A stretch of 64,000 nucleotides of DNA, taken from a virus. Lineage: Duplodnaviria; Caudoviricetes. The notes under the pieces were generated by a model. That model made no database searches and was not told where the DNA came from. It worked only from the letters and a program-made list of their open reading frames with translations. Shown piece after piece: positions 46,904 through 64,000 of this stretch. The stretch lies in the IMG/VR virus record IMGVR_UViG_3300028887_000103, positions 16,373 through 80,372 of that record; one strand, written 5' to 3'. The position numbers were made by a program, and so were the translations under genes. Each line of letters opens with the position of its first letter. Within the stretch, counting starts at the first letter, position 1.

Positions 46904-47398
46904 ATGCAAGAGAAGAAATATACTGCTCAAGATATTGAGGAATTAAAAAAGAAAGACCCTAAAGAATTAACTGCTAAAGAAAAAGGTTTGATAAATCTAC
47001 GACCAAACAAGCCAGGTGAAACTGGTGACAAACATCTAGGAGGAAGAAAGAAGGGTACTCCAAATTGGTCAACCCATTTCAAAAGATTGATGGGCGATGA
47101 ACAGTTCTTAAATACTATTATCAGTGCTCTACCTCAACAGTGGGAAGGAGTAGTTGATAAATATCCTGCCAGCGTGATAGCGGCTGGGCTGATTACTACT
47201 GCCACTCAACAGATTGCAAAAAGTGTCGTGGAGGGGAAACCAGTTGACGAACAAACACTACGAATAATAGATAGAATTTCAAAGATTGGATATGGAGATG
47301 AAAGTAGAGTAACGCTGAACACAGAAGAAGGCTTCTTTGATAAAGTGAACTTCACTTTCAATGTGGTAGAGGACAGAGAGCAACCAGAGGAATCCTAG
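46904..47398 (+). CDS. Terminase small subunit (putative)
   Basis: NLRPNKPGETGD..GGRKKGTPN motif; directly upstream of TerL. Confidence 0.7.
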   Translation: MQEKKYTAQDIEELKKKDPKELTAKEKGLINLRPNKPGETGDKHLGGRKKGTPNWSTHFKRLMGDEQFLNTIISALPQQWEGVVDKYPASVIAAGLITTATQQIAKSVVEGKPVDEQTLRIIDRISKIGYGDESRVTLNTEEGFFDKVNFTFNVVEDREQPEES

Positions 47399-48819
47399 TG
47401 GATATAAGTAAGAAGCAAAGACAATTTCTACAACTGCTGGAAGACCCTACCATTAACGAACTTCTGATTGGAGGAGCAGGTGGAGGTGCCAAGAGTTTCA
47501 GTCTAGGGATGGGAGCAACTCTTTTGGCTAGAAAGTATCCAGGGGTTAGAATCTTTATGGGAAGAAAAACCCTAAAAAGTCTTAAGCAATCTACTGTCAA
47601 TACTCTACTTACAAAGGTGTTCCCATTTCTCGGAATAAGTGGCAATGATTATGCTATCCACTTCCAAGATATGACGCTAGATTATAAGAATGGTTCAAAG
47701 ATAATTTTTGGCGAATTGGATACAGTCCCGTCCGACCCAGATTTTTCTAGGATTGGCTCTACTGAATACGATATAGCAATCGTAGATGAGGCAGGTGAGA
47801 TAACCTTACAAGCAAAAAATGCTATCAAAACTCGTATTGGTCGTGGTATCCTGGCTAATTATGGAGTGCCGGGGAAGTTGATAATATCGGCTAACCCTAG
47901 CACCAACTTTTTGTTCTCTGAATACTATGAGCCATACGAAAGACAGGGTGGGGGTGGTTTTCAGAAATGGCAAATCGGTCATACGACTGTTTACGAGGGA
48001 ACAGAGAAGGAAAAACGATTGCCGTCATATCGGGGGTTCTTAAGAATGGGTGCTTACGATAACCCTTTCTTGCCACAAGCATACATTGACAATCTTAAGA
48101 CTCTTCCAGATAGGGAAAGAAGAAGAATTCTTGACGGGGATTGGCATTATGCTGATGATGAAAGTTCGCTGTTTAGAAGTGGTTTGCTAGATAAGGCTAC
48201 CATCTGGGAGTTACCAGAAAGCGATGAAAATGAGTGTTTTATCGGGGTTGACCTTTCCGATTCGGGTAAAGATAAGACTATATTCAGTTTGATAAAAAAT
48301 GGCATACTCGTAAACCAGAAGGCTTCTAGCGTTCAGATGAACTGGGAAAAAGAATCTAAACTTCCAATGGGTAGATTGATAACAGATGAACTAGTAGAGT
48401 TTGCCCAGAGAAATGGGATTGACCAGCGTCTAGCAAGTCGTATAGCAGTAGAAATTAACGGTGTGGGTGCTAGTGTTCGTGACTTCTTACGGGAAAGAGG
48501 TTGGCATATTACAGAATACACTGCAACTCATAAGTCTAGGAGTGAAAATTATTACAATCTGATGCTTGATATGGACGCAGGAGACATAAAGATATATCAC
48601 GAAATAAATGACTTGGACGGCTTAAGAAGAGAATTGTCTGCTCATTCCTACGAGATGAACAACCAAGAGCCAAGCGTAGTGAAAAAGGAAAAGATTAAAC
48701 TAACAATCGGGCATTCACCTGACCGTGCAGATAGTTTTGCTATCGCTAACTTTGCTAGAAGGATGGCCGAGCATCCAGAATTGAGTCCAAGAACTAATCG
48801 CAATCGCTTGATTTTCTAG
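47398..48819 (+). CDS. Terminase large subunit
   Basis: GGAGGGAKS Walker A, IVDEA Walker B, SANP coupling motif, IGVDLS RNase-H nuclease Asp, SPDRADS. Confidence 0.95.
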   Translation: MDISKKQRQFLQLLEDPTINELLIGGAGGGAKSFSLGMGATLLARKYPGVRIFMGRKTLKSLKQSTVNTLLTKVFPFLGISGNDYAIHFQDMTLDYKNGSKIIFGELDTVPSDPDFSRIGSTEYDIAIVDEAGEITLQAKNAIKTRIGRGILANYGVPGKLIISANPSTNFLFSEYYEPYERQGGGGFQKWQIGHTTVYEGTEKEKRLPSYRGFLRMGAYDNPFLPQAYIDNLKTLPDRERRRILDGDWHYADDESSLFRSGLLDKATIWELPESDENECFIGVDLSDSGKDKTIFSLIKNGILVNQKASSVQMNWEKESKLPMGRLITDELVEFAQRNGIDQRLASRIAVEINGVGASVRDFLRERGWHITEYTATHKSRSENYYNLMLDMDAGDIKIYHEINDLDGLRRELSAHSYEMNNQEPSVVKKEKIKLTIGHSPDRADSFAIANFARRMAEHPELSPRTNRNRLIF

Positions 48820-51477: not shown

Positions 51478-52413
51478 ATGAGTTTACCACAAAGATATGG
51501 AGTAGATAAGAAAATCAATTCTATGGAAGGCTTATCTGCGTATGAAAATGGAGGAAAGGGGAGTGGAAACTTCGGTCACGAAGGCCGTCCAGGTTTAGTA
51601 GGGGGTAGTGGCGGAAGAGGAGTAAGTGCCACTAGTTTTCACGAGTCTAGACAAAGAGTAGGTTCGGTTGAAAAAGAGGCGAAAGAGGCTGAAAGGCTTA
51701 AACGAGAGGAAGAGGCTTATTCAGAAGTTATGAATCCAACCAGAAAGTTAGATGACGAAACGCTTGAGATGGGGCGTGAGGCTGTTAACAGTGCGATGGA
51801 TACTGCTGATGCTAAACTCCGTTCGGGAAAAATACAACCAACGGTAGATGGCAAACCTTTTGCACCGTGGCGAAGAGAATTGAAAGAAAGTGGACAGACG
51901 TTAGCAACCCCGCTAGAAGGGGACACAGACAATTCTGTCATCTCGTCTGTAATGGGTCAGTTATCAGATGGGATTTGGGAAAATTCTCCTGCTATGGAAT
52001 CCTACTGGAGAATGTGCGAACCATTCAAAGCGGATGATGGAAAAATATATATGAAAGTAAGCAAGAAACTTGATTATGTAGATTATACTGACCATCGTGG
52101 TGTTAGACACTGGAAAAACAATAAATATGCAAATCTGACTAATGCTGGAGTTAGAGATTTCTGGGGTAAAAAGGTGAAACAGGTAGTAGATACAGAGCGT
52201 AGGGATTCCAAGCATTCTTCAATATTCAAGGGGAATGAGGATTATTCTTGGCGACCAGATAATAATACTAGGCTTCAATATATGCACTCAACTAAAGAAG
52301 GTGCTAAAAATCCAACAGTAGGGGATGCTTATAGAGTTTGGGCAAAACTTGTTGCACCCAAGACCGCCAAGTTAAATCGCAACCCATTCGATTATAGAGA
52401 GGACAATTACTAG
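51478..52413 (+). CDS. Tag-bearing hypothetical protein (one NGGKGSGNFGH tag), putative capsid cargo
   Basis: Tag at 51547-51612 near the N-terminus. Confidence 0.7.
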   Translation: MSLPQRYGVDKKINSMEGLSAYENGGKGSGNFGHEGRPGLVGGSGGRGVSATSFHESRQRVGSVEKEAKEAERLKREEEAYSEVMNPTRKLDDETLEMGREAVNSAMDTADAKLRSGKIQPTVDGKPFAPWRRELKESGQTLATPLEGDTDNSVISSVMGQLSDGIWENSPAMESYWRMCEPFKADDGKIYMKVSKKLDYVDYTDHRGVRHWKNNKYANLTNAGVRDFWGKKVKQVVDTERRDSKHSSIFKGNEDYSWRPDNNTRLQYMHSTKEGAKNPTVGDAYRVWAKLVAPKTAKLNRNPFDYREDNY

Positions 52414-52414
52414 A

Positions 52415-55414
52415 ATGAAAAAAGAAATCTACAATAAACTTAAAAAAAAGGTGGACAGGTTAGAGTTGCTCATCAATGGGGGTAAAGGTTCTGGTAACTT
52501 CGGTCATAGCGGGCGACCTGGAGAAGTAGGTGGTAGTGGAGATGGTGCAGGTGCCTCAGAGGGTGGCGCTGACAGACTGCAAGGTCCAGCAAAAACTAGA
52601 GAAGAATATGTCTATAAGAAAGCGAGTGAAAAATGCCAAGGTGATGCGTCTGATGTATATGCGTCACTGAGCGAACACGCTGAGTGGATTGCTGATGATG
52701 GCTCTTTTGCTGAAGGCTATAATGCTGATGACTATTGGAAATTAGCAGATAGACTGGGGGTTCGGGGTGATAAATTGGGTGAGCAGAGTAGAGTATATAC
52801 ACAGCAAGACTTAGTGGAAGGGTTCAAAAGGCTCGTAAAAGAGGTTGAACCTTATGGGTTGCTAGATGGCTCTAGTTCAAATGATAAACTGGATGAGTTT
52901 TTGGGCACTTATGACTTTGACCGACGGAATGGTCTTAACGGGAGAGTGTTTGAAAATGGCGGGAAAGGTTCTGGCAATTTCGGTCACGCTGGCCGTCCGG
53001 GAGAAGTAGGTGGTAGTGGTAGAGGGGTTAAGGCAAGTTCGCTTCATAGTAAAGGAGAGACTTCTACCAGCTCAGAGGAAAAAGAGAGGTCAAAAGCGTT
53101 ACAAGCATCTTTTGAATCTGCCGCGCTTGAAAGTCAATTAAGAGATAAAAGATTTGAGTTAAAGAAGCGGGGTCTGTTTGATTATTATGACTATGAAGAT
53201 ATGAGAATGGACGAGTTAGTTGAAGATGGGGCTACTCCTGTAGATTTAGCTAACCAGAAACTTATTGATTCTATACGCCGAGAGTATGATGAAAAGACGC
53301 AGGCTTTGAAAGATGAAATAGAGGATTTAGAAAAACAGGTTAGGGCTAAGTATAAAGTAGTGGATGATTATCTGGAAAAATATGGCAAGAAGAATAGTTT
53401 CGTCACTAATGGTGGTAAGGGGTCTGGGAATTTCGGACATTCAGGACGACCTGGGGAAGTAGGTGGGTCTGGCAAAGGTTTTAGTGCTGGAGAAAAAGTT
53501 GAAGTTTCGGCAGGAATCTTCGGAAGTTATGAGGCAAAGATTGTCAAAAAACTTAAAGATAGTGAAAAACCTGTCTTTTCGGAAGAAGGAGAAGATTATT
53601 ATGAGGTTTCTAGAACTTCTCACGGTTCAGAAGTCAAAGGAATAGTGAAGAGTTCCGATATTAAGAAAAAGGGTGCGAACGAAAAAGGTAAGAAAGAAGC
53701 AAAAACCCAGACGGTTTCTTTGAAGGGTAAATCTCTTTATGAAAAAGTGCATATGATTGAGGCTGGAGATGAAGTTCACATCACACCGAAAGATAATCTG
53801 CCAAACTTTGACAGAAAGATTAAGGTTGATTATATTCAAGATGGCACCATTCATTACGGTAGTTCAGAAACAAGCGATGGTTATACTTATCCTGCTTGGG
53901 CAATTAAAGACATCACAAAGATTATAAGAAAGAAAAAGAATTCAATCTACGCTGAAGTGTCCAGAAGGCTTGACAAGATTGAAAAAATGTTAAATGGTGG
54001 AAAAGGTTCAGGTAACTTCGGGCATTCTGGGAGGCCAGGAGAAGTAGGAGGCAGTGGAAATGGTAAAGGTAACACAAAGATTGCAGAATTGGAATCTAAA
54101 ATTGCTCAAGTCGAACAAGATTATGCAGACAACCGTCGGACAAAAATTGATATGCTAAAGACCAAGAGGGCACTAATGGAAGAGTTGTCCCAAGCGAGGT
54201 TAGAGGAGGCTTCGGCAAAAAGGAAAGAAGAAAAGGGGAAGGAATGGTCTATTCCTGTTTCAGATAAATCAAAGGAATGGGAAAGGTCGAAAAATTACAA
54301 GATAGAGTATTGCGACTCTGAAGCATTGGAAAATTTCAAAGATGAATTCGAAGGGTTAAGCAATGAGGACGCCTTTGAAGGGCTTAAATCTATACTCGAA
54401 ACATTGCCAAAAGATTTTGATACTAATGTTACGGCGAAGTTAGGTTTATCTGCTGGCAATGGGACAGTGGGTAGAATGCCGGCTAAAGGTTCTAGTGTTT
54501 CTAGACAAGTTGCTGGGGATTATCTGCTAGCATCAATGGCAAAGATGCATAGCCGAAGAGATTTGAGTCTTGACAGAACTTCGGATAAAAGAAGGTTTGA
54601 AGCATTTAGGCAAGTTATCGATTCACCTGCTGGGACATATTTTGATAGCGATAAATTATTCGATGATACGACATATCTTCGTGACACAAAAAAGAATTCA
54701 ACAATAGTCAATGGGGGTAAGGGCAGTGGCAACTTCGGACACGCTGGCAGACCTGGTGAGGTTGGTGGCTCAAGTAAAGATGGAGGGGGGATGAACCCAA
54801 ACACCAAGATTGCGAGGGATTTAGCCAAACAAAAAGAGTATATTGAAAAAGCCAAGCAAGTGACTAAAGACATTGAGGACAGAATTGGTCAAAAGATGAA
54901 GGAAGGGGAAACCTACACGGCTTTTGATGAAGCGAAATTTAGTAGGTTCAAGTTCTTCCACGGTGAAGATGGAACTGAATATACCTACGATAAGATTGCT
55001 GATATGATTACCAAGACAAATCCGAAGACGGGCGACCAAGAAGTTGTTACCAAGCAAAAGAAGGATTATGGTTCGGAAAGAAGTGGAGTTAGCAAGAGAG
55101 ATGGACATCAAATAGCTAGTGAGTTTGCTGATTTATCGGCAGAATTAGAAACAGCGAGAACCAACTTGAAAATGTTGAAAGAGGATAAAGGGAAAGCGTA
55201 TAAAGACCTATCTGGAAGAAATACATTTATGGATAGAAGTTCTGAAATTAGTAGGTCATTACATTACGCAGAGGCATTAGGTAAGAGTAAAATGTCTAAA
55301 GAGACCAAAAAGTTGGTTAAAGAGATGGAAAAAGAATTACGCTCCATCCGAGATGAATATGATAAATTAGGGACTGATAAATACTTTGACCCAGATTTGA
55401 ATCACGAGAATTAG
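52415..55414 (+). CDS. Tag-punctuated polyprotein-like protein (five tags), putative capsid cargo
   Basis: Tags start at 52475, 52955, 53408, 53993 and 54710, separating unrelated segments. Confidence 0.75.
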   Translation: MKKEIYNKLKKKVDRLELLINGGKGSGNFGHSGRPGEVGGSGDGAGASEGGADRLQGPAKTREEYVYKKASEKCQGDASDVYASLSEHAEWIADDGSFAEGYNADDYWKLADRLGVRGDKLGEQSRVYTQQDLVEGFKRLVKEVEPYGLLDGSSSNDKLDEFLGTYDFDRRNGLNGRVFENGGKGSGNFGHAGRPGEVGGSGRGVKASSLHSKGETSTSSEEKERSKALQASFESAALESQLRDKRFELKKRGLFDYYDYEDMRMDELVEDGATPVDLANQKLIDSIRREYDEKTQALKDEIEDLEKQVRAKYKVVDDYLEKYGKKNSFVTNGGKGSGNFGHSGRPGEVGGSGKGFSAGEKVEVSAGIFGSYEAKIVKKLKDSEKPVFSEEGEDYYEVSRTSHGSEVKGIVKSSDIKKKGANEKGKKEAKTQTVSLKGKSLYEKVHMIEAGDEVHITPKDNLPNFDRKIKVDYIQDGTIHYGSSETSDGYTYPAWAIKDITKIIRKKKNSIYAEVSRRLDKIEKMLNGGKGSGNFGHSGRPGEVGGSGNGKGNTKIAELESKIAQVEQDYADNRRTKIDMLKTKRALMEELSQARLEEASAKRKEEKGKEWSIPVSDKSKEWERSKNYKIEYCDSEALENFKDEFEGLSNEDAFEGLKSILETLPKDFDTNVTAKLGLSAGNGTVGRMPAKGSSVSRQVAGDYLLASMAKMHSRRDLSLDRTSDKRRFEAFRQVIDSPAGTYFDSDKLFDDTTYLRDTKKNSTIVNGGKGSGNFGHAGRPGEVGGSSKDGGGMNPNTKIARDLAKQKEYIEKAKQVTKDIEDRIGQKMKEGETYTAFDEAKFSRFKFFHGEDGTEYTYDKIADMITKTNPKTGDQEVVTKQKKDYGSERSGVSKRDGHQIASEFADLSAELETARTNLKMLKEDKGKAYKDLSGRNTFMDRSSEISRSLHYAEALGKSKMSKETKKLVKEMEKELRSIRDEYDKLGTDKYFDPDLNHEN

Positions 55415-55708
55415 ATGATAATATTTTACTCAAAGAGTTGTGAAAGTTGTGCAGGAAACCACGCTTTGGCGAAGATGAAAAACCACTGTAAACGACAGGG
55501 GGTAAAGTTTGAAGAGCATAGGACTGTGCTTTGGGTAAGATATGAAGATGAAGCCAAACAGATAATGGAGTTGAATGAAGGGCTTAAATTGCCCTTCTTC
55601 TATTCCACTAATTCCGGGGAAGTTTTGTCGGGGTATAGTTTGACACCCCTAGAAACCTTACAAAAATTGATTGAAATTGACAAATCTAGTGAAAAACTAG
55701 GCTCGTAA
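55415..55708 (+). CDS. Thioredoxin/glutaredoxin-like small redoxin
   Basis: N-terminal IFYSKSCESC (CxxC) and cis-Pro 'LPFF' segment. Confidence 0.6.
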   Translation: MIIFYSKSCESCAGNHALAKMKNHCKRQGVKFEEHRTVLWVRYEDEAKQIMELNEGLKLPFFYSTNSGEVLSGYSLTPLETLQKLIEIDKSSEKLGS

Positions 55709-55738
55709 ACGAGTTCTAAAGCGTCTCTCGGCTGAAAG

Positions 55739-55754
55739 TAGTATAAAATATCGT
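55739..55754. repeat. Intergenic motif TAGTAT-N4-TATCGT, copy 3 of 3
   Basis: TAGTAT-AAAA-TATCGT. Confidence 0.6.
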
Positions 55755-55791
55755 GGGTGAAATAAGCGAAAAAATCAGATAAAAATCTTTG

Positions 55792-55829
55792 AAAAAAGTA
55801 TTGATTTTTCGCTATTTTTTTGTTATAAT
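55792..55829 (+). promoter_or_regulatory. Repeated 38-bp promoter cassette, copy 3 of 3
   Basis: Differs from the other two copies at one base. Confidence 0.85.
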
Positions 55830-55940
55830 AGGGTTATAGAAATGGAAGTTTCTATCTAGGGGCTTGGTTGACTTCCTCCTAGTAAAACAAGGAACAGAAG
55901 CAAAAAAGGGTGGGCAACCATTAAAAGAAAGGAAAAAAGT

Positions 55941-56186
55941 ATGTTCGGAAAAGAAATGAAATGGACAAATTGGAGTCAGATTAAGAAGTGGGCGAAATCG
56001 AAAGGTTTTGACAATCTGGTTGCCAGAATGGAATTAAATGACCGTGCTTGGATGTCAAGTGGCGAGTTTGGTAGAAGCCAAGCACAAATCTGCGACAGTT
56101 TAAGGTTTGCAGAAAATGAAGAAGAAGCAATGCAAATTGCTGAAGAATATAATAAGGCTTTTGCCAGCAACTACGGATTGTATTGA
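55941..56186 (+). CDS. Hypothetical protein
   Basis: SD AAGAAAGGA. Confidence 0.7.
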   Translation: MFGKEMKWTNWSQIKKWAKSKGFDNLVARMELNDRAWMSSGEFGRSQAQICDSLRFAENEEEAMQIAEEYNKAFASNYGLY

Positions 56187-56196
56187 AAGGAGGAAT

Positions 56197-56763
56197 ATGT
56201 CAACAAGAAGTAGAATTGGAATGGTAATGCCAGATGGCAAGATAAAGAGTATCTACTGCCACTGGGACGGCTATCCAGAAGGAGTGGGTGTAAAACTGGA
56301 GAAGTATTACAAAAACCCAAAGCAAATCGAGGAATTGATGGAATTGGGTGACATTTCAAGTCTAGGTGACCACTATGACAAAGAAGCATCAGGCTTGGAT
56401 TGGAAAATGTTTGAAATAGCAAACAAGGACAAGAAGAAACTGGAGGAAATTCAGAAAAAGACGGCAAATTGCACAGTCGCTTACAAGGACAGAGGCGAGA
56501 ATAGTCCTGCCAGAATTGATGCCGATGAAGATGAGTTCTTGGCAAGTCTAGGTAGGAACTGGGAAGAATACACTTACCTCTACAAAGAAGATTATGATGG
56601 TGTCTATAAGTGGCACCTCGTGGAAACACCGTTCTTTCATCCATTACACGAGGAATTGAAAAAGCGTGGGGTGAAAGATTTGGATAGTGACGAGAGGCAG
56701 ATGGGTATTGATGTCATTAAGAAACTTGACTTAGAAGACGGGATGAAAGTGGAGTTTAACTAA
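56197..56763 (+). CDS. Hypothetical phage protein (MSTRSRIG...YCHWDGYP motif; start re-called)
   Basis: SD AAAGGAGG before ATG 56197. Confidence 0.75.
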   Translation: MSTRSRIGMVMPDGKIKSIYCHWDGYPEGVGVKLEKYYKNPKQIEELMELGDISSLGDHYDKEASGLDWKMFEIANKDKKKLEEIQKKTANCTVAYKDRGENSPARIDADEDEFLASLGRNWEEYTYLYKEDYDGVYKWHLVETPFFHPLHEELKKRGVKDLDSDERQMGIDVIKKLDLEDGMKVEFN

Positions 56764-56906
56764 TGAGTGACCTGACTGCTGAGATGTTTGAAAAAGTCAA
56801 GGAAATGGGGTATAACAGTTTTGAGGAACTGCATAAAGCAGGATATGTAGTAGTTCTAGAGGGGAATGAATGGAAAATAATGAAACGGGAGGAAGCATAT
56901 GGCTAG
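56763..56906 (+). CDS. 47-aa hypothetical protein (not in ORF track)
   Basis: TAATG-coupled; overlaps the next start. Confidence 0.5.
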   Translation: MSDLTAEMFEKVKEMGYNSFEELHKAGYVVVLEGNEWKIMKREEAYG

Positions 56907-57180
56907 AAAGCGATTGAATATGACTGCGGAAGAACGCAGGAAATATAACAATGAGATGCATCGGAAACAGACTAAGGTGCGTAGAGAAAGGGCTGAGCGA
57001 GAGGCTTACAAGGAAATTGTAAAGACTGTTGCTGATACCTTTGAAAAACTTGGTTGGAATGAAGTTGACTTACTAGTTGGTGCAGATAATGAGATGATAG
57101 ATAAGGCTGTGGAAGAATTGATAAAAGCAGACAAGTTCAAAATCGTGCTAGGGTCGAAAATCGGTGTTAAAATTAAATAG
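56899..57180 (+). CDS. Hypothetical protein
   Basis: SD GGAGG. Confidence 0.65.
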   Translation: MARKRLNMTAEERRKYNNEMHRKQTKVRRERAEREAYKEIVKTVADTFEKLGWNEVDLLVGADNEMIDKAVEELIKADKFKIVLGSKIGVKIK

Positions 57181-57192
57181 AAAGGAGATAAG

Positions 57193-57537
57193 ATGCCGAA
57201 ACAACAAGAAATAATAGATGCAGATAATTGGCTAGAGCATCTTCAAAATGAAAAAGCCTCTATTGCCAGAAGGGGAAGGAAAATACGGAGGGCTGAAAAG
57301 GTATTTACTATTCTGTGGGTAGTATCTTTAACGGTTGGAATGGTAATGACATTCTTTATGCCGGGTCTTGCGTCTTATCTAGTGTTCGTGAGTGTCATAT
57401 TCGCAGGGCTAGGTATGGATTGTTCTGGGTATCTATGGGGAGTTGCAGAAGGAAGGTTGGAGCACAATCTTGACGACCTCATAGAATACGAAAAAGAAAG
57501 GAGAAAAAATGCAGAACATTTCGAAAGCGGGAAGTAA
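57193..57537 (+). CDS. Membrane protein (two TM)
   Basis: Hydrophobic central segments; SD AAAGGAG. Confidence 0.7.
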   Translation: MPKQQEIIDADNWLEHLQNEKASIARRGRKIRRAEKVFTILWVVSLTVGMVMTFFMPGLASYLVFVSVIFAGLGMDCSGYLWGVAEGRLEHNLDDLIEYEKERRKNAEHFESGK

Positions 57538-57724
57538 AGTAGAAGAAGCCCGTCAACTAATTAACAAATTATCTAGGGAAGAACTAGAAAAATATGGAAA
57601 GCCTGCATTGGAGTATATTGGAGATTATCCTCTATATGGCTCGATGTCTAATATCGGCTATGATGAGGCTATTCTATTAACAATAGCGTTAGAGGGGAAA
57701 GAGTTTTTCGAAGGAGTAAAATGA
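57509..57724 (+). CDS. Hypothetical protein
   Basis: SD AAAGGAG. Confidence 0.6.
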   Translation: MQNISKAGSKVEEARQLINKLSREELEKYGKPALEYIGDYPLYGSMSNIGYDEAILLTIALEGKEFFEGVK

Positions 57725-58146
57725 AAAAGTTGCTAGTGACCGACCCGTGCTATCTTATTAACGAAACCGACTGGGCAGGTATGTGTGATGCCTGTTTTGG
57801 AAAAGTTGAAGGTGATGAAGGGTTTAAGAAGTTCAAAAACCAAGTTCAGGAATTGCTACGAGCAATATCTGGAGATATTAAGGCAGTAGCAGATGAAACT
57901 GGAATCGGAGATTGGACAAATAGCATTGACAATCAGATGTTTTATGCAGATTCAGGTATGGTATGCGTGGTGGAAGATACGAAGAAGTTGCGAGAGTATC
58001 TAGACAAATACAAAATAATTCTACCTATCGGGGTGGCAAGGGTTGAAGTAGAAGATGATGCTATGTATAAGATTGATACCCACAACCCGAATTGGAGTGT
58101 GGTGGAGATTTTAGATTCTAAAAAATTACTGAGGTCAGACGAATAA
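57721..58146 (+). CDS. Hypothetical protein
   Basis: ATGA-coupled; VTDPCY and FYADSGMVCV motifs. Confidence 0.7.
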   Translation: MKKLLVTDPCYLINETDWAGMCDACFGKVEGDEGFKKFKNQVQELLRAISGDIKAVADETGIGDWTNSIDNQMFYADSGMVCVVEDTKKLREYLDKYKIILPIGVARVEVEDDAMYKIDTHNPNWSVVEILDSKKLLRSDE

Positions 58147-58201
58147 TTACTATTCAACTTTGCTTGTGTTATAATGGGGTTATAGTAAATTAACAAAGCA
58201 C

Positions 58202-58231
58202 AAAAAGGAGGGTCTTTAACAACCCTCCCTT
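58202..58231. terminator. Terminator hairpin usable from the minus strand (possibly both)
   Basis: AAAAAGGAGGGT-CTTTAACA-ACCCTCCCTT. Confidence 0.6.
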
Positions 58232-58582
58232 GTAGGTATCCAGATAAGACAACCTACCTACATAAATCTATTATAGCACACGTTAGACTAAAAATCTAGT
58301 GCTAAAAATGTTACCGTTCCGAGCGGGATACAAAATCGGCACCTCTGTAAATTGGGCCACCGTCTAGGGTTGACGAGTCCGACCTAGAAACAGATTCCTA
58401 CAGCCTCGAGGGTTAAAAAGTAGAGGCAGGAGAGGTGAAAATAATGTCGCTAGAAAGAAAACTGGACTGGAATTTAGGTTTTCACTAGAACAGCTTTGTT
58501 AAATCGTCTTATATCTCTATCACCTATTTCTAGGGGGTAAAACCTTATTGAGTGAAAATAAAAACTGTGCTAAAATTAAACT

Positions 58583-59146
58583 ATGAAACAACCCACTTGC
58601 AAAATCTGTGGCTCTCATTCGCACTATACTTATATGTGCTTCCAGAACCCTAAAAGAAAAGCGGCTCTAAAACGCAAATATAGCGAGTTTAAGGCAGGGA
58701 AAGTTCCGAAGAGGGATAAGTTATTAAGCAATGAAAAAAGTCTTGACAGAAAGCGTTTGATACTTGAATTGGATAAGTATTGCTCGTTATATGTGAGGCT
58801 TAAGGCAAGCAATAAATATGGGGTATTGAGTTGCTACACTTGTGGAAAAAGAATACCGTGGAAGACAGCCCATTGCTGTCATTTTATTTCTCGAAGATTT
58901 GGTGGCACTAGATTTGATTTTGACAATCTTCGTGCTGGCTGTGAAAACTGCAATGTCGCTTTACACGGGAACTTGGAAGTGTATAGAAAAAACTTGGTGA
59001 GAGAGATAGGTGAGAAGGCAGTTGATAATCTTGAGCAGAGGAAAAATCAGAAGATATCAACACCTGATTTAGAAACTCTTTTGGAAGAGACTAAACAAAA
59101 ATACAAAAATCTAATAGCAGAGAAAAAGGCAGAACAGATAAAATAG
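58583..59146 (+). CDS. ninG: NinG/Rap-like recombination endonuclease
   Basis: CYTCG, HCCHFISRR..GTRFDFDN...GCENCN motifs. Confidence 0.8.
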   Translation: MKQPTCKICGSHSHYTYMCFQNPKRKAALKRKYSEFKAGKVPKRDKLLSNEKSLDRKRLILELDKYCSLYVRLKASNKYGVLSCYTCGKRIPWKTAHCCHFISRRFGGTRFDFDNLRAGCENCNVALHGNLEVYRKNLVREIGEKAVDNLEQRKNQKISTPDLETLLEETKQKYKNLIAEKKAEQIK

Positions 59147-59207
59147 TTTTTTGCTATAATAGAAGTAACGATTAAAAAATTAACTTGAAAATATAGGTAA
59201 ATTAACA

Positions 59208-62200
59208 ATGGCACTCAGAGATACGTTCTTGAATATGCTTGGCGTAGAGACTCAAGAAGTTCAAAAAACAAGCAATGGAGCAATAAGGTCCGCTAGAGAC
59301 TTTCTCAGAAATGGAAACCGTGAAAGATTATATCCTACTTGGTCAGATATTAAGATGTCTGATTCGGATATGTATCGTGGTTACTCCTACGCTGTGATAC
59401 AAAAACGAGGAAATAAGGTTGCCTCACTTGCGAAAAATAACCTTAAAACTTGGGCAAATCAAGAGGTCGTTGACGAGTTTCAAAAGAAAAATGAAACTGT
59501 GATGCACCCCTATCTAAAACTAATTGAAGATTCTACCAAGTTCACAGAAAAACAATTTTGGAAAAACATTTCTATCTATCTAGATTTGGCAGGTAGGTAT
59601 TACTTGGGAGTGGTTCGTAACACCGTCAAACCGTTCAATCCAAAACTTCCAGTTATTACAACCGACCCAACCGAGTTCGTGATGCTTAACCCTTACGAAA
59701 TTCGTAGAGTGGTTGACAAAAACGGGTTGGTGGCAGGTTATATTGAAAGGAAGAAAGATGGCAGATATAGGGAATGGCCGGTTCATCAGATTATTGAATT
59801 GCGTGAATTAAACCCATTCGACCCAGAGAATAGCCAATGGGCTATGACTGACGCTGCTAAAAATGCTGTCTATACAATCAACCAGAGTGGCGATTATACA
59901 AGGCAGTCTCTCAATGGCAATATAGACGCACCTGGAATTATTACGACTGATGTCCTATTAAATGATGAAGACTTTGCTAACTTCAAATCGAGAGTCACTC
60001 AACATACGAAGGGTGAACCCCTGTTTGGTAATGGCACAGGTGCTATCAAATGGGATTCAATGCAGATTGATTTAGACAAGGCCGCTCTACTAGATATTAA
60101 CGAAATTAACAGAACTGAATTGTTCGCTGTATCTGGGACAAGTAAAACTTCTCTAGGTATTGAGCAATCAGGGACGACAAGGGAAACAGCGAGAGTTCAG
60201 AGTGAGCAGTTTATTTCTGATACTGCCCAACCACGGCTAGAAGACATCGTGGATTTCTTGAACTTGGACTATAAAAAGTATTACAACCGTGAGTATAAAA
60301 AGACTGGCTACAGCATTGAGGTGGAAAGTGCTGTGGGTAAAGATTATGATACAGAACAAAAAGCAACAGCGTTAAAACAAAGTCAATTCCAATTGGCAAT
60401 GCAACTTATTCAGGCAGGCTATACTACTCAAAGTGCTTATCAGTTTGCTGAAGGTGAGATTGATTTTGCTGACTTGGAACTAGAAAAGGGCATTGATAAA
60501 CCGAAGAATCCAGACCAACCAGAAGAGCCCGACGAGAGTGCCTCTAATCCGCAAAATATACCACCTGACAGCGGTTCTGGTGGTGGGAATGATAAAAGTA
60601 TCGTGTCGGAAGAAGAAAGTGGTTCAAACGAGAATCTGGAGGACCTGAATGGACTTGAACCACACAATGATTTAGTAGAAAATGGTGGCAAGGGAAGTGG
60701 TAACTTTGGACACGAAGGACGGCCGGGGCTAGTAGGGGGAAGCGGAGATGGTGGCTTAACCTCTTTTGAAGAAGAAATCTCTGCTATTGATAATCCAGAT
60801 ATTCTTTACAAAAAACAAGAAAGTCTAGTGACTACTGAAGTTGTTAGCTGTTTGGAGAAAGATAGCGATTCTCTTACGGGAGAGGAAAAAGACGTTTTGA
60901 AAGAGTTTTATGACAAAACTAATCTTTTGAGAAAAAAGTTGTTTAAGTTGGAGTGGTCAGATATAGAAAAGGCAGATAAAAAAATCTCCGAGTGGATATC
61001 TGGGGCCCTAGACTGGGAATTTAGGGATATTGATTTTGACCCAGTAGATATTAGACTGTCTAAATCCACGGTTCAAGGGATGTTAGATAAAGAATCTGAG
61101 TTAATTGCTTATCGTATTCAAGCCACGGATAGGATGGAGAAAAGCAAAGGCTCCTCGTTCAGTCTATCAGAAACTTTTTCCGAATCTTCTCCAGATTCAG
61201 AGACCCCTTATGTTTTTGCTCAGAAAGTAACTAAAGAAAATACTATTTTAACCCCGAACATAGTTCAAGCCGGCTACGGTTATGAGCTTGGCCCCAATTG
61301 GCAACACGAGATTGTGCTTTCGAATGATAAAGAGTTAATGCCGATAAATAACTCTGTGGAGGGTGAGAAGTGCGACCCTTTAACACGGAATGGAGGGAAA
61401 GGCTCAGGAAACTTTGGGCATAGTGGAAGACCTGGAGAAGTCGGAGGAAGTGGTAATGGTTCTGCCACAGATTTTCAGAATGAACTTGATAATATAGAGT
61501 CTTACCATATTCCAGAAGCAACTAAAGCAAAACTAAGCGATTTACAAAAAATCAATACTTACAATAAGATAGAAGAATATCTTGCTAGCAAAGGTATTGA
61601 GGTTGATACTGATGCCGAATCTTTAAAAGGTGAAAGAAAAGATGAAGTCATTTCCTCTCCTGCCGATACTTTTGTTAGGTTAGCAATCGGAATAGAGGCT
61701 TATCAGGATACTTTTGGTTCAGATGCTTTAAGTTCTTTGAAGAAGGTCAAGTTTTATGACAATGATGAAGATTCTCAAGCCGCTTACTATTATTCTGAAA
61801 TAGGAGAAAAAGAGCCAAAAGAAGGGCAAATAAGTTTTCGTCAATGGGGTAATACAGGCAAAACTATATTTCACGAGTTAGCTCACGCCTTTCAAGATTC
61901 ACATAAAAAATCTGGAGAAGATGCTGTAACCTACTCCGATAGGATGGTGAAAGAGGCAGGTTTGAGTGAAAAATCTGGGTCTTATATGGGAGCGAGTCAG
62001 AGTGGAAATGGAAAAGGGTTACAAGCAGAAAGGTTTGCTGATGCTTTCGCTAAGGGTTTCGCTAGTGGAAATAAGGAAGGACTTGACTTCATAGAAAGAG
62101 TAGCTCAGATTGAGAAAAAGAAAAATCACTGCACCTGTGAACACGACCATAAGGTTGAAACTTTTATTAACGAGGTGGCACAGGATGACGGCAAGGTAGT

Positions 62201-63971
62201 AGATAAGGCTTACAAGGAGTTTCTACAAGAAGTCCGAGATATTGAAAAAGAAACGATTGATGCTTCTGTCAGAAAAGTGGAGGTTAACGCTTTTGAAATC
62301 TCTGATATTATCGGGCCGAAGAAGCGTAAAACTCTTACCGAGAAATTGAAAAACGCATTACATAAATACTGGTGGCTAATCTTCCCACTATTTGCTAATA
62401 ATTCAATGTCTAAGCGTAATGAGGAGTTCGGTAAGGATATTGGGTTCGTGTTTAGCAACGAACTACAAGCAGGAGTGGATGACAATGCTCTAAGGGTTGC
62501 TGAAGGGCATATGGAAACTATCTTAAATGATATTCTAGGTGCGAGCAATCGGGCTTACACTAATATCTTAGAGGAGGCTGCTGCTGAAATCATAATAAAT
62601 GTCTATGATGATTCCCCGACGAAATGGGAAAAATACTTTGAGCATAAACCAACAATGGCTGAAGCCCTATCAAGTATCAGGAAGACAGATATTCTAGAGG
62701 AAAATCGTAAAATCTATGAAAAAGCGAATAAGATGGCTTTTGAAGGCTATAACCGACGGGATATAATCAAGGCAATCCGAGAGGAATATAATTATATCAG
62801 CGAAACAAGGGCTACCCTGATTGCTAGAAATGAAACCTCTAGGGCGTTTACTAGAAGTCAGTTTGAAGCAGATAAGCAATTCTTAAACAGCATTGGTAAA
62901 CTTGGTCAGGCTTACAAGGTTTGGTATTCAAGACGACCTGCTAACGAGCAAGATAAGATTTGCGACTTCTGCAATGAGATGATTCGTTCCTCCGAGGAAA
63001 ATCCAGTTCCTTTTGAAGAACCGTTCATCAAATATGGGGATTCAATGGAAGTAGTTGGTAATGATGGAAAATTAAAGATATTTACGGCTAACTACGAGGA
63101 TATAGAGGGAGGTTGTCTGCACCCGAATTGTATGTGTGGCTATCATTTAGTTTTCAAGAACGCATCGGGAGAGTTTATCAAGACTTTGAATGGTGGTTCT
63201 GGGTCAGGGAACTTTGGTCATAGCGGAAGACCCGGCGAGGTCGGTGGCAGTGGTAAAGGTGATATTACCACAGGGAAAGATTTGTTCAACGCTAAGATGA
63301 GTGATAAATTGGAAGCGTTTAGAAACTTAACTCCAGAAGAGCAGGCAGTATTTTGTGAAAAAGCGATGGAAATGGACTACTCGGATATGCCTCAAGATTT
63401 AGCCGATACCGACTTTCAAAGAATATCTTACGCTTTAGGAATCAAAGATAAACCAAAAACGGTTAGTGATGAAGAATTCAAAGAGTTAGTAGAGAGTGGA
63501 GAGATGGAATACTTCAGATGTGTCAAAGATTACTATAAATTGAGTTCTAAAGAGATTGCAGAGAGGCTCTCAACGGGTGAATATACTTATCAAGGTAACG
63601 GCGATTATTGTGATGGAACTTATTTTACACCAGATTGGGGAGCTATGACTGCATATTCTAATTCGGACAGTGACTCGGTTATTCGTAGCATAGTGGATAT
63701 AGATGCAAATATCTACTATACTGATGCTCGTGAGCCATTTGACGCTAAAATGCTTCATACAATGAGAATACTTGAGGAAAAGACTGGAATGAAGCAAAAT
63801 ACCTCTAGAGCCGTTGCTTTATTGGGCGCTGGATATGATGGGTGGAATTTCATAAGTGGGGGTGTTAACAAAGAATATCTCTGTATGTTGAATAGAAAAT
63901 ATCTAACTGTCAATAAAGACAATTACAGTCTTCAAAAATCGGATTATGAAAGGAGTGATGATGTGGAATAA
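59208..63971 (+). CDS. Portal protein fused to tag-delimited cargo domains and a MuF (phage head morphogenesis) domain
   Basis: N-terminal ~430 aa portal-like; three tags (60681, 61389, 63189); R-S-QxE ART-like domain; HELAH zincin; MuF motifs (RATLIARNET, CDFC, LHPNCMC); C-terminal ART-like domain. Confidence 0.8.
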   Translation: MALRDTFLNMLGVETQEVQKTSNGAIRSARDFLRNGNRERLYPTWSDIKMSDSDMYRGYSYAVIQKRGNKVASLAKNNLKTWANQEVVDEFQKKNETVMHPYLKLIEDSTKFTEKQFWKNISIYLDLAGRYYLGVVRNTVKPFNPKLPVITTDPTEFVMLNPYEIRRVVDKNGLVAGYIERKKDGRYREWPVHQIIELRELNPFDPENSQWAMTDAAKNAVYTINQSGDYTRQSLNGNIDAPGIITTDVLLNDEDFANFKSRVTQHTKGEPLFGNGTGAIKWDSMQIDLDKAALLDINEINRTELFAVSGTSKTSLGIEQSGTTRETARVQSEQFISDTAQPRLEDIVDFLNLDYKKYYNREYKKTGYSIEVESAVGKDYDTEQKATALKQSQFQLAMQLIQAGYTTQSAYQFAEGEIDFADLELEKGIDKPKNPDQPEEPDESASNPQNIPPDSGSGGGNDKSIVSEEESGSNENLEDLNGLEPHNDLVENGGKGSGNFGHEGRPGLVGGSGDGGLTSFEEEISAIDNPDILYKKQESLVTTEVVSCLEKDSDSLTGEEKDVLKEFYDKTNLLRKKLFKLEWSDIEKADKKISEWISGALDWEFRDIDFDPVDIRLSKSTVQGMLDKESELIAYRIQATDRMEKSKGSSFSLSETFSESSPDSETPYVFAQKVTKENTILTPNIVQAGYGYELGPNWQHEIVLSNDKELMPINNSVEGEKCDPLTRNGGKGSGNFGHSGRPGEVGGSGNGSATDFQNELDNIESYHIPEATKAKLSDLQKINTYNKIEEYLASKGIEVDTDAESLKGERKDEVISSPADTFVRLAIGIEAYQDTFGSDALSSLKKVKFYDNDEDSQAAYYYSEIGEKEPKEGQISFRQWGNTGKTIFHELAHAFQDSHKKSGEDAVTYSDRMVKEAGLSEKSGSYMGASQSGNGKGLQAERFADAFAKGFASGNKEGLDFIERVAQIEKKKNHCTCEHDHKVETFINEVAQDDGKVVDKAYKEFLQEVRDIEKETIDASVRKVEVNAFEISDIIGPKKRKTLTEKLKNALHKYWWLIFPLFANNSMSKRNEEFGKDIGFVFSNELQAGVDDNALRVAEGHMETILNDILGASNRAYTNILEEAAAEIIINVYDDSPTKWEKYFEHKPTMAEALSSIRKTDILEENRKIYEKANKMAFEGYNRRDIIKAIREEYNYISETRATLIARNETSRAFTRSQFEADKQFLNSIGKLGQAYKVWYSRRPANEQDKICDFCNEMIRSSEENPVPFEEPFIKYGDSMEVVGNDGKLKIFTANYEDIEGGCLHPNCMCGYHLVFKNASGEFIKTLNGGSGSGNFGHSGRPGEVGGSGKGDITTGKDLFNAKMSDKLEAFRNLTPEEQAVFCEKAMEMDYSDMPQDLADTDFQRISYALGIKDKPKTVSDEEFKELVESGEMEYFRCVKDYYKLSSKEIAERLSTGEYTYQGNGDYCDGTYFTPDWGAMTAYSNSDSDSVIRSIVDIDANIYYTDAREPFDAKMLHTMRILEEKTGMKQNTSRAVALLGAGYDGWNFISGGVNKEYLCMLNRKYLTVNKDNYSLQKSDYERSDDVE

Positions 63972-64000
63972 GTTAGCAGAAAGTGGAACGATTTTGTTGA

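Follow-up and report, generated by a model that had tools for sequence, protein, structure and literature searches.

The final 64 kb (bases 16373-80372) of the 80,372-bp IMG/VR virus record IMGVR_UViG_3300028887_000103, a Caudoviricetes genome rated 100% complete, form the stretch of DNA analysed here (64,000 nucleotides; the window), and coordinates refer to this window unless they are given as genome positions. The head and packaging module starts with the gene for the large terminase (47398-48819, + strand; phrog_2, E=2.7e-29), and downstream of it a short glycine-rich peptide, here called the tag, recurs within several proteins of this module, where it probably serves as an address and processing unit. 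A six-frame regular-expression scan of the whole window detected nine copies of the pattern N-GG[K/S]GSGNFGHxGRPGxVGGS, all on the + strand, and no copy on the other strand or in other frames. These copies are spread over three open reading frames (ORFs), with one tag in 51478-52413, five in 52415-55414 and three in 59208-63971. The next two ORFs beyond the window end, at genome 95-895 (266 aa) and 885-2834 (649 aa), contribute three more, giving a phage total of 12 tags in five head-module proteins. Read across the genome join, all five tagged ORFs lie between the large terminase and the tail-fibre and capsid genes. An initial annotation, made from the sequence without database searches, had placed nine tags in three proteins; the positions agree exactly, and for the genome as a whole the count was an understatement.

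The first tagged ORF of the window (51478-52413, + strand) encodes a 311-aa cargo protein composed of a 23-aa leader, a tag at aa 24-44 and a 267-aa module, and the protein matches no Pfam, PHROG or NCBIfam model. Its tag, copy 1 (51547-51609), reads AYEN|GGKGSGNFGHEGRPGLVGGS, where the bar marks the junction between the Asn and the GG; this range, like those of the other eight copies, comes from the six-frame scan and begins at the Asn codon. The second ORF (52415-55414, + strand) encodes a 999-aa cargo polyprotein in which a 20-aa leader is followed by five cassettes, each comprising a tag, a linker and a module. Its tags are copies 2 (52475-52537), 3 (52955-53017), 4 (53408-53470), 5 (53993-54055) and 6 (54710-54772). 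The motif KKNS stands ahead of copies 4 and 6, and a leader-like stretch (KKKNS...KMLN) ahead of copy 5. The third ORF (59208-63971, + strand) encodes a 1587-aa portal fusion, in which the portal domain (aa 75-391; Pfam PF04860, E=3.4e-16; phrog_2662) and an acidic, Gly-containing linker precede a tag, a module, a second tag, a region with an HExxH motif (about aa 896 of the open frame) and MuF-like character, a third tag and a C-terminal module. The Phage_Mu_F match between the second and third tags is weak and under the cut-off (E=0.0085). The tags of the fusion, copies 7 (60681-60743), 8 (61389-61451) and 9 (63189-63251, with GGS in place of GGK), lie at aa 492, 728 and 1328, all C-terminal to the portal domain. 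Hence the initial description of each tag as opening an unrelated domain, even inside the portal, is apt in that tags precede modules, but the portal domain itself is not interrupted.

Apart from the portal and the sub-threshold MuF match, comparisons of the window's tagged proteins and of each inter-tag segment with Pfam, PHROGs and NCBIfam gave nothing, and PDB sequence searches with several modules returned nothing useful. When GenBank phages were searched with tblastn, neither the tag alone nor the portal fusion nor the protease domain described below had a match, although the low-complexity filter probably hides the tag. Beyond the window, the 266-aa tagged protein scores 0.94 by Atlas features and has a structural TM score of 0.73 to the T-even ADPRT cluster, and these models point to an Alt/VIP2-type ADP-ribosyltransferase (ART). 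Most of the remaining modules have no match.

The two ends of the record overlap. Its first 150 nt imperfectly repeat its last 149 nt (genome 1-150 against window 63852-64000; 98.7% identity, one mismatch and one 1-nt gap), and the genome ends therefore join; the assembly is circularly closed, and its repeat is slightly heterogeneous. At the window end, the 1-nt gap puts the 266-aa putative ART gene into a shifted reading frame. Coupling among the cargo genes is tight, one step short of fusion: a single nucleotide (1 nt) separates the stop codon of the 311-aa ORF from the ATG of its 999-aa neighbour (52411-52417), and there is an 11-nt overlap between the ORFs of 266 and 649 aa.

The 12 copies of the tag share a mean identity of 0.91 at the amino acid level and 0.70 at the nucleotide level. 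Where two copies have the same residue, they use different codons in 65% of pairs, with switches even between the AGY and TCN codons of Ser and between the CGN and AGR codons of Arg, and the longest exact run common to the copies is 18 nt. As the initial annotation proposed, the codons differ synonymously while the peptide is kept, and selection therefore acts on the peptide. The tags are old copies maintained by selection at this level, and they are neither recent duplications nor a DNA-level signal. A DNA-level recombination joint is ruled out by the saturation of the synonymous sites.

The residues ahead of the tag are also patterned. Asn precedes GG in all 12 tags of this phage. The proteome contains five KKNS motifs against 0.58 expected, and four of the five are situated 5-50 aa upstream of a tag (window 53393-53407, 53927-53941 and 54695-54709; genome 2118-2132), which bears out the KKNS-like segment noticed initially. 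The variants KKINS, INNS and KNAS stand ahead of other tags. KKNS could be a second Asn|Ser processing site or a relic of former N-termini (M-K-K-N-S...). In the 999-aa protein, the stretch KKKNSIYAEVSRRLDKIEKMLN ahead of the fourth tag resembles the protein's own N-terminal leader, MKKEIYNKLKKKVDRLELLIN, and this likeness suggests that polyproteins may arise through in-frame fusion of genes that each encode a leader, a tag and a module.

The tag belongs to a widespread family. A 32-column profile built from the 12 copies was compared with 1.84 billion cluster representatives. At E<=1e-3 it matched 3,754 proteins, of which 672 remain at E<=1e-10 and 79 at E<=1e-30; some of them contain up to nine copies. 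The family consensus is GG-[P/K]-GSG-[N 80%/H 13%]-[F/Y/W/H]-GH-x-GRPG-[E/Q/K]-[V/I]-GGS, followed by a stretch rich in Gly, Ser, Pro and Ala, and the median tag-to-tag spacing is 220 aa, or about one domain. The Asn before GG, which the initial annotation took to be constant, occurs in only about 19% of tags across the family and is thus a trait of lineages such as this one. The same search supplied the list of cargo domains that the initial annotation had hoped to draw from a tag profile. Pfam matches on tagged proteins include ART-PolyVal, ADPrib_exo_Tox, Phage_Mu_F, portal families, Zeta_toxin, ParBc and 2H phosphoesterase, as well as PI3/4-kinase-like, Fic and GNAT domains, zincins of the SprT, M48 and MPTase types, and Peptidase_S78_2. 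Judged by these matches, the repertoire is that of the polyvalent proteins, the multidomain phage proteins considered at the end of this text. The initial annotation had also allowed for the tag being an already characterised domain with another function. The tag itself corresponds to no Pfam, PHROG or NCBIfam model and to no solved structure, including when its profile was compared with the PDB; no paper describing it was found in the literature library searched, and its motif strings match no paper there.

Confirmed tag stretches number 165 in IMG/VR, and one exact-pattern scan of GTDB genomes yielded 29 prophage-like loci, distributed among Clostridia, Elusimicrobia, Chitinivibrionales, Gamma- and Betaproteobacteria, Dehalococcoidia, Acidobacteria, Eggerthellaceae, Omnitrophota and one archaeal metagenome-assembled genome. 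Three of the tagged prophages reside in Candidatus Desulfosporosinus nitrosoreducens, Clostridiales bacterium CCNA10 (a complete genome) and Oxalobacter paraformigenes. In all three, the tagged ORF is the portal ORF or its neighbour in the head module, and two of the three head modules are ordered TerL - portal - MuF - DUF2213 - capsid protein. An all-against-all BLAST comparison of 75 loci revealed no co-occurring conserved partner, the best family being present in 13 of the 75. Similarity to the capsid and protease protein of the present phage is detectable in one of 29 long tagged phage records, and the capsid family PF05065 is barely detectable in 12 records.

Cassette anatomy was assessed in 170 tagged ORFs from 75 viral contigs. 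A single tag is present in 122 of these ORFs. In about half of the 170, the first tag lies no more than 56 aa from the start of the longest ORF, often far closer, and at least 54 aa (median 268 aa) follow the last tag. The N-terminal leaders are lineage-specific, measure 8-45 aa and end in a genome-specific residue before GG. Some are 8-residue, strand-like peptides (for example, M-K-L-T-L-R-F-K), those of this phage's clade are amphipathic helices of about 20 residues, and others are basic (R-I-R-R-S-L...R-R-M-D) or of the form L-R-x-L. The tag and the linker behind it are predicted to be disordered (predicted local distance difference test, pLDDT, 33-45).

The modules behind the tags change position and host protein among relatives. 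The putative ART, a separate gene here, forms the end of the portal fusion in three relatives, and modules of the 999-aa protein occur at other positions and in shorter proteins. A relative with a 75%-identical capsid protein has only two tags, none of them at the equivalent junctions of its portal-MuF fusion; therefore, the tags travel with cargo cassettes and not with the portal or MuF. The modularity envisaged in the initial annotation is supported by this swapping of modules between positions and proteins, and comparison likewise supports the view of the tagged proteins as polyvalent and head-associated.

In one reading, the tag cleaves itself. Its Asn-x-x-His spacing, with an invariant His and Arg close by, recalls the NPTH loop of FlhB/YscU, and Asn cyclisation at N|FGH could in principle cut the chain without an enzyme. 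However, His, Asp, Phe or Tyr replaces this Asn in about 20% of tags, whole lineages among them (GSGHFGH, GSGHHGH, GSGFHGH), and the NPTH mechanism requires a strained turn in a folded domain, which a peptide predicted to be disordered does not offer. Such autocleavage is very improbable. Three further candidates were considered and set aside: a double-glycine bacteriocin leader or ubiquitin-like LRLRGG mimicry has an inconsistent hydrophobic register, mimicry of the ribosomal protein L27/Prp site involves no real similarity, and an N-degron exposed by a cut at N|F has no evidence behind it.

The residue immediately before GG, denoted P1, behaves differently from all its neighbours. Across 777 tags from 192 proteins or genomes with at least three tags each, pairwise identity at P1 is 82% within a group against 20% overall, an excess that no other position reaches. 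Within groups, identity is 20% at position -2, which is thus free, and an intermediate 33% at position -3. When Leu and Ala are counted as one class, P1 is uniform in most complete or long records and always so in those with at least four tags; two genomes with two or three tags have a mixed P1. The present phage has Asn at P1; among the other genomes, seven have Lys, three Arg, six Asp and eight Leu/Ala (five of these eight encode a weak-match DUF2213 protein, and three have no DUF2213), and of the two with Phe, one also has a Leu. The pattern is that expected of a residue recognized by a lineage-specific protease cutting X|GG. In Asn-type lineages, moreover, 58% of tags have an extra N-[S/T/G] in the preceding 30 aa, whereas 26% would be expected to, and no such excess is found in the K, L or R types. 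The extra motif could be a second site, or it could reflect the shared ancestry of the leaders.

A genome-specific P1 also bears on readings in which the tag is never cut. Gly occupies every third position through five triplets (GNF GHx GRP GxV GGS) around a G-R-P core, and the tag might thus be a structural or binding element: a hinge, a short Gly-X-Y association motif of the collagen-like or polyglycine-II-like kind, or an AT-hook-like GRP anchor to the packaged DNA, the one partner common to all tagged phages. Five Gly-X-Y triplets are, however, too few for a stable triple helix. An AT-hook has an R-G-R-P core with basic flanks, whereas the core of the tag is H-x-G-R-P-G with a single Arg, and the residue behind GRPG is mostly Glu (55% of cases) or Gln. 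The tag profile has no relative among solved structures, and a purely structural role would leave both the N-terminal leaders and the genome-specific P1 unexplained. This explanation appears distinctly unlikely, if less so than autocleavage.

Candidate enzymes for a cut at P1|GG are found in the tagged phages themselves. Of 29 tagged phage records, 12 encode DUF2213 (PF09979), which is absent from all 14 control genomes. In 14 DUF2213 sequences of 15-46% identity (L056:16093-16866 and 13 other loci), His83, Ser149 and His179 are invariant. An AlphaFold2 (AF2) model of DUF2213 has a domain pLDDT of about 66-96, mostly above 80, and its only significant Foldseek matches in the PDB are three chains of T4 gp21 (5jbl; E=2.6e-6, probability 1.00, TM 0.60-0.62). 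By predicted fold, DUF2213 thus looks like an unannotated family of prohead proteases of the T4 gp21 type.

The border motifs of these proteins resemble the tags of the same phages. In the class with strong matches to DUF2213, P1 is Asp in eight of eight genomes (six viral genomes and two prophages). A conserved NID|G/S directly follows the domain in seven of the eight, and R-[A/T]-D|G occurs about 30 aa after NID wherever the sequence extends that far, one ORF ending earlier; the tags of these phages read R-T-D|GG and R-x-D|GG. The divergent DUF2213 protein of the Desulfosporosinus prophage has AIHD|A at the end of its domain and AVHD|GG at its single tag. In the weak-match class, P1 is Leu/Ala in five of six genomes, four of these five have [N/H/P]-R-[A/T]-A just past the domain, and the tags read L-R-A-A|GG, I-R-T-A|GG and similar. 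One weak-match genome has a full tag 27 aa past the protease domain. Weak-match proteins also display a conserved Cys-rich G-A-C-S-x-E-M-G-C-G directly after the domain. A second protease type appears in two Lys-type proteins, in which an S78_2 protease is the C-terminal module and, in one of them, a tag follows the protease. Here, no tag accompanies the motifs G-E-K|G and K-N-K|A, which are found at most about 10 residues from the N-terminal border of the protease domain. Among the 29 tagged phage records, Pfam S78 and S78_2 are absent except for one weak, sub-threshold S78_2 match.

The capsid gene of the present phage suggests a comparable arrangement for Asn. In a 705-aa ORF (genome 8642-10759), a protease-like domain and a capsid protein of the HK97 type are fused with an acidic, scaffold-like region (about 140 aa) between them; the ORF has at least 719 close homologues on contigs of 80-85 kb. 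The protease-like domain (aa 1-155) has an Atlas feature score, a language-model lead, of 0.96 to S78 clusters, and His61, Ser109 and His131 are invariant in it; homologues of the capsid part carry PF05065. Three [K/R/H]-N-S motifs, invariant in 120 homologues, occupy aa 12-14, aa 153-155 at the end of the protease-like domain, and aa 393-395. In the relative with the 75%-identical capsid protein, the alignment to the Pfam capsid profile begins 8 aa past the third motif, a distance presumably comparable to that between the HK97 maturation cut and the equivalent motif. These motifs stand at the domain borders of the fusion, and the likely cutting point in this clade is thus an Asn before a small residue, which the tags offer as Asn|Gly-Gly. 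Counting this phage, P1 appears to match border motifs of the resident prohead protease in five lineages.

These observations are interpreted, with moderate confidence, as the signature of an N-terminal address-and-processing unit of head-associated cargo, the polyvalent proteins, which would be cut at P1|GG by the prohead protease of the phage. The cassette runs from a lineage-specific leader or border through the P1 residue, the invariant peptide GG...GGS and the Gly/Ser/Pro/Ala linker to the cargo module. The phage's own assemblin-type prohead protease would cleave between P1 and GG, which in this phage means after Asn. Inside the procapsid, this cleavage would separate the modules of polyproteins and strip the N-terminal leaders, and each freed module would keep an invariant 19-residue handle at its new N-terminus and be injected along with the DNA. 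Cleavage, packaging, injection and any role of the handle are steps that we infer from sequence comparisons. The prohead-protease signal of the initial annotation has good comparative support in the genome-specific P1 and its match to protease borders, but the Asn said there to precede every GG is not universal. The capsid-loading signal of that annotation is plausible.

The presence of metallopeptidase modules among the cargo suggests another enzyme. HExxH motifs number 80 against 9 expected in 192 tagged proteins, 31% of which carry one, and an HExxH module sits between the second and third tags of this phage's portal fusion. Zincin-like metallopeptidase modules of the polyvalent proteins could therefore cut the tags themselves, perhaps after injection and for instance at N|F, in line with a published prediction for this class of proteins (PMC5512222). 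Yet a tagged ORF carries HExxH in only four of the ten tagged genomes that are complete or nearly so, Pfam MPTase-PolyVal is undetected in the present genome, and the genome-specific residue precedes GG and is not beside the invariant Phe. Zincins may be just a common kind of cargo, and they are more likely this than a universal processing enzyme. Cutting by the zincins is accordingly given a low probability.

A slightly better, though still unlikely, alternative to prohead-protease cleavage is that the tag loads cargo into the capsid, or retains it there, while remaining uncut. It would dock the modules to a conserved surface of the HK97-fold shell interior, the portal or the scaffold, and the genome-specific residue would be only part of the contact. 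The tag is short, Gly-rich, invariant and predicted to be disordered, it stands at the cargo terminus beside a flexible linker, and it is found near the N-terminus of single-module proteins, where a mere cleavable spacer would be needless. Encapsulin loading peptides likewise remain conserved while their shells diverge. Against this, no head protein conserved at the BLAST level co-occurs with the tag, and the capsid protein of this phage is detectably shared by a single one of the 29 tagged phages. Moreover, uncut docking gives no reason for the agreement, within one genome, between the residue before GG and the motifs at the protease borders, and a module tethered to the shell would not be free for injection.

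Processing at P1|GG by the prohead protease has several points weighing against it. The 19 invariant residues far exceed what a protease site needs, and most of the conservation is unexplained by a cleavage model. The covariation of P1 with lineage could partly reflect shared descent and not protease specificity. In several genomes, tagged ORFs are dispersed over about 35 kb and not clustered at the portal. With a looser pattern, a few tags, one of them degenerate, fall 15-36 aa from a C-terminus. In this phage, the protease-like domain of the 705-aa fusion is undetected by Pfam S78, S78_2 and S77, and an hhalign comparison of DUF2213 with the fusion gave no match, both profiles having an effective number of sequences (Neff) of about 1.8. 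The AF2 model of the fusion, built on an alignment of close relatives only, has a pLDDT of 34.5. The putative protease domain of this phage thus rests on the language-model lead and the invariant His/Ser/His.

A degenerate tag also closes a prophage portal fusion (L089:7889-10852; portal - NUDIX - tag - module). Its Arg is replaced by Val, it lies about 15 aa from the C-terminus, and it is possibly the scar of a lost cassette.

The excess conservation suggests a second function. The presumed sites of the protease itself lack the 19 residues; therefore, recognition by the protease is not the reason for their invariance. The handle would instead serve another step, for example docking substrates for cleavage in trans, keeping cargo in the head or letting it leave. 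Since no family co-occurs at the BLAST level and the capsids are dissimilar, three options are left for what the handle works with: a feature whose shape rather than sequence is conserved, a component that every tailed phage or its host possesses, or a property inherent in the peptide. A lineage-independent, universal cargo handle for loading, retention or exit in tailed-phage heads across bacterial phyla, combined with a one-residue P1 code for each protease, is put forward tentatively.

With the tag, which occurs in about 3,750 clusters, candidate packaged effectors of uncultured phages can be searched for by sequence. For each lineage, it offers a predicted scissile bond (P1|GG) and a candidate enzyme, DUF2213 included, and the model predicts that swapping P1 would switch which protease cuts. 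In addition, the invariance of 19 residues across phages with undetectably similar capsids points to a shared cargo-handling step outside current models of head assembly. If the tag is indeed such a universal cargo handle, the injected proteome of uncultured phages could be listed from sequence alone, and the tag would be a portable means of placing arbitrary proteins into phage particles and delivering them into bacteria. Should the handle suffice for loading or delivery, it would become a practical tool for phage engineering.

Two other genes lie in the untagged part of the genome between the cargo and the capsid fusion. A BspA-type leucine-rich-repeat (LRR) protein (genome 5373-6611; LRR_5, E=1.9e-13) follows a tail-fibre-repeat protein and is likely a receptor-binding or adhesion component. 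An HNH/NUMOD4 homing-endonuclease-like gene (genome 7157-7654; Pfam E about 1e-13) lies between the LRR and tail-fibre genes and the capsid fusion.

Several known systems share features with the tag cassette. Encapsulin loading peptides are also short, Gly-rich and conserved, have flexible linkers and address unrelated enzymes into a shell of the HK97 fold. However, they are usually C-terminal, uncut and GSLxIGSLK-like, whereas the tag has another sequence, stands on the N-terminal side of its module and is repeated in polyproteins. In MARTX toxins, an internal cysteine protease domain likewise releases a string of effectors by cutting the linkers between modules. It does so after Leu, in linkers that are not otherwise conserved, and the trigger comes in the cytosol of the eukaryotic cell; the domains recorded for tagged proteins include no cysteine protease. 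The MuF polymorphic toxins, which join a MuF domain to a variable C-terminal toxin, resemble the present phage and its relatives in having a MuF region followed by swappable effector modules, an ART in the relatives. We know of no conserved junction tag described for them.

The nearest functional analogue appears to be the capsid-targeting sequence of T4 together with cleavage by gp21. In T4, a short N-terminal leader targets cargo (IPI-III and Alt) to the prohead and is removed by gp21, and the tag cassette similarly places a short N-terminal leader ahead of a candidate protease site on head cargo. The parallel extends to the components: T4 Alt is a packaged and injected ART, the 266-aa tagged protein is Alt-like, and DUF2213 is predicted to have the gp21 fold. 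The T4 site, in contrast, is a three-residue L/I-x-E with nothing conserved past the cut, whereas a 19-residue invariant peptide follows the predicted cut in the tag. Unlike the T4 site, this peptide is common to lineages that differ in their P1 residues and protease families. PF03420 (S77, gp21) is absent from the present genome, and P1 here is Asn, not the Glu of the L/I-x-E site.

The tagged proteins themselves appear, from their domain content and gene context, to be members of the polyvalent-protein class. Iyer, Burroughs, Anand, de Souza and Aravind (2017; PMC5512222) predicted that polyvalent proteins are packaged, processed and injected, and proposed processing by zincins and, for rare C-terminal assemblin-like domains, self-processing. 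Polyvalent proteins resemble the tagged proteins in bringing together modules such as ARTs, nucleases, kinases, zincins, MuF and portal domains, in having head genes as neighbours and in the extensive shuffling of their modules. At least two unrelated domains in one polypeptide define the class, and such combinations are seen in the portal fusion and in the five unrelated modules of the 999-aa protein. The class is also phage-encoded and linked to virion genes; here, TerL, portal and capsid genes flank the tagged genes, and the three prophages are arranged alike. The text of the 2017 paper contains no mention of glycine, a linker, a spacer or a 'conserved motif' (PMC5512222), and a later paper by the same group on packaged ARTs mentions neither glycine nor a linker. 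No processing site or enzyme is known to have been established since the 2017 prediction. New here are the covariation of P1, the matches at protease borders and the gp21-like fold of DUF2213, and, compared with the earlier proposals, this evidence points to the resident prohead protease as the probable processing enzyme and to a defined P1|GG junction as its site.

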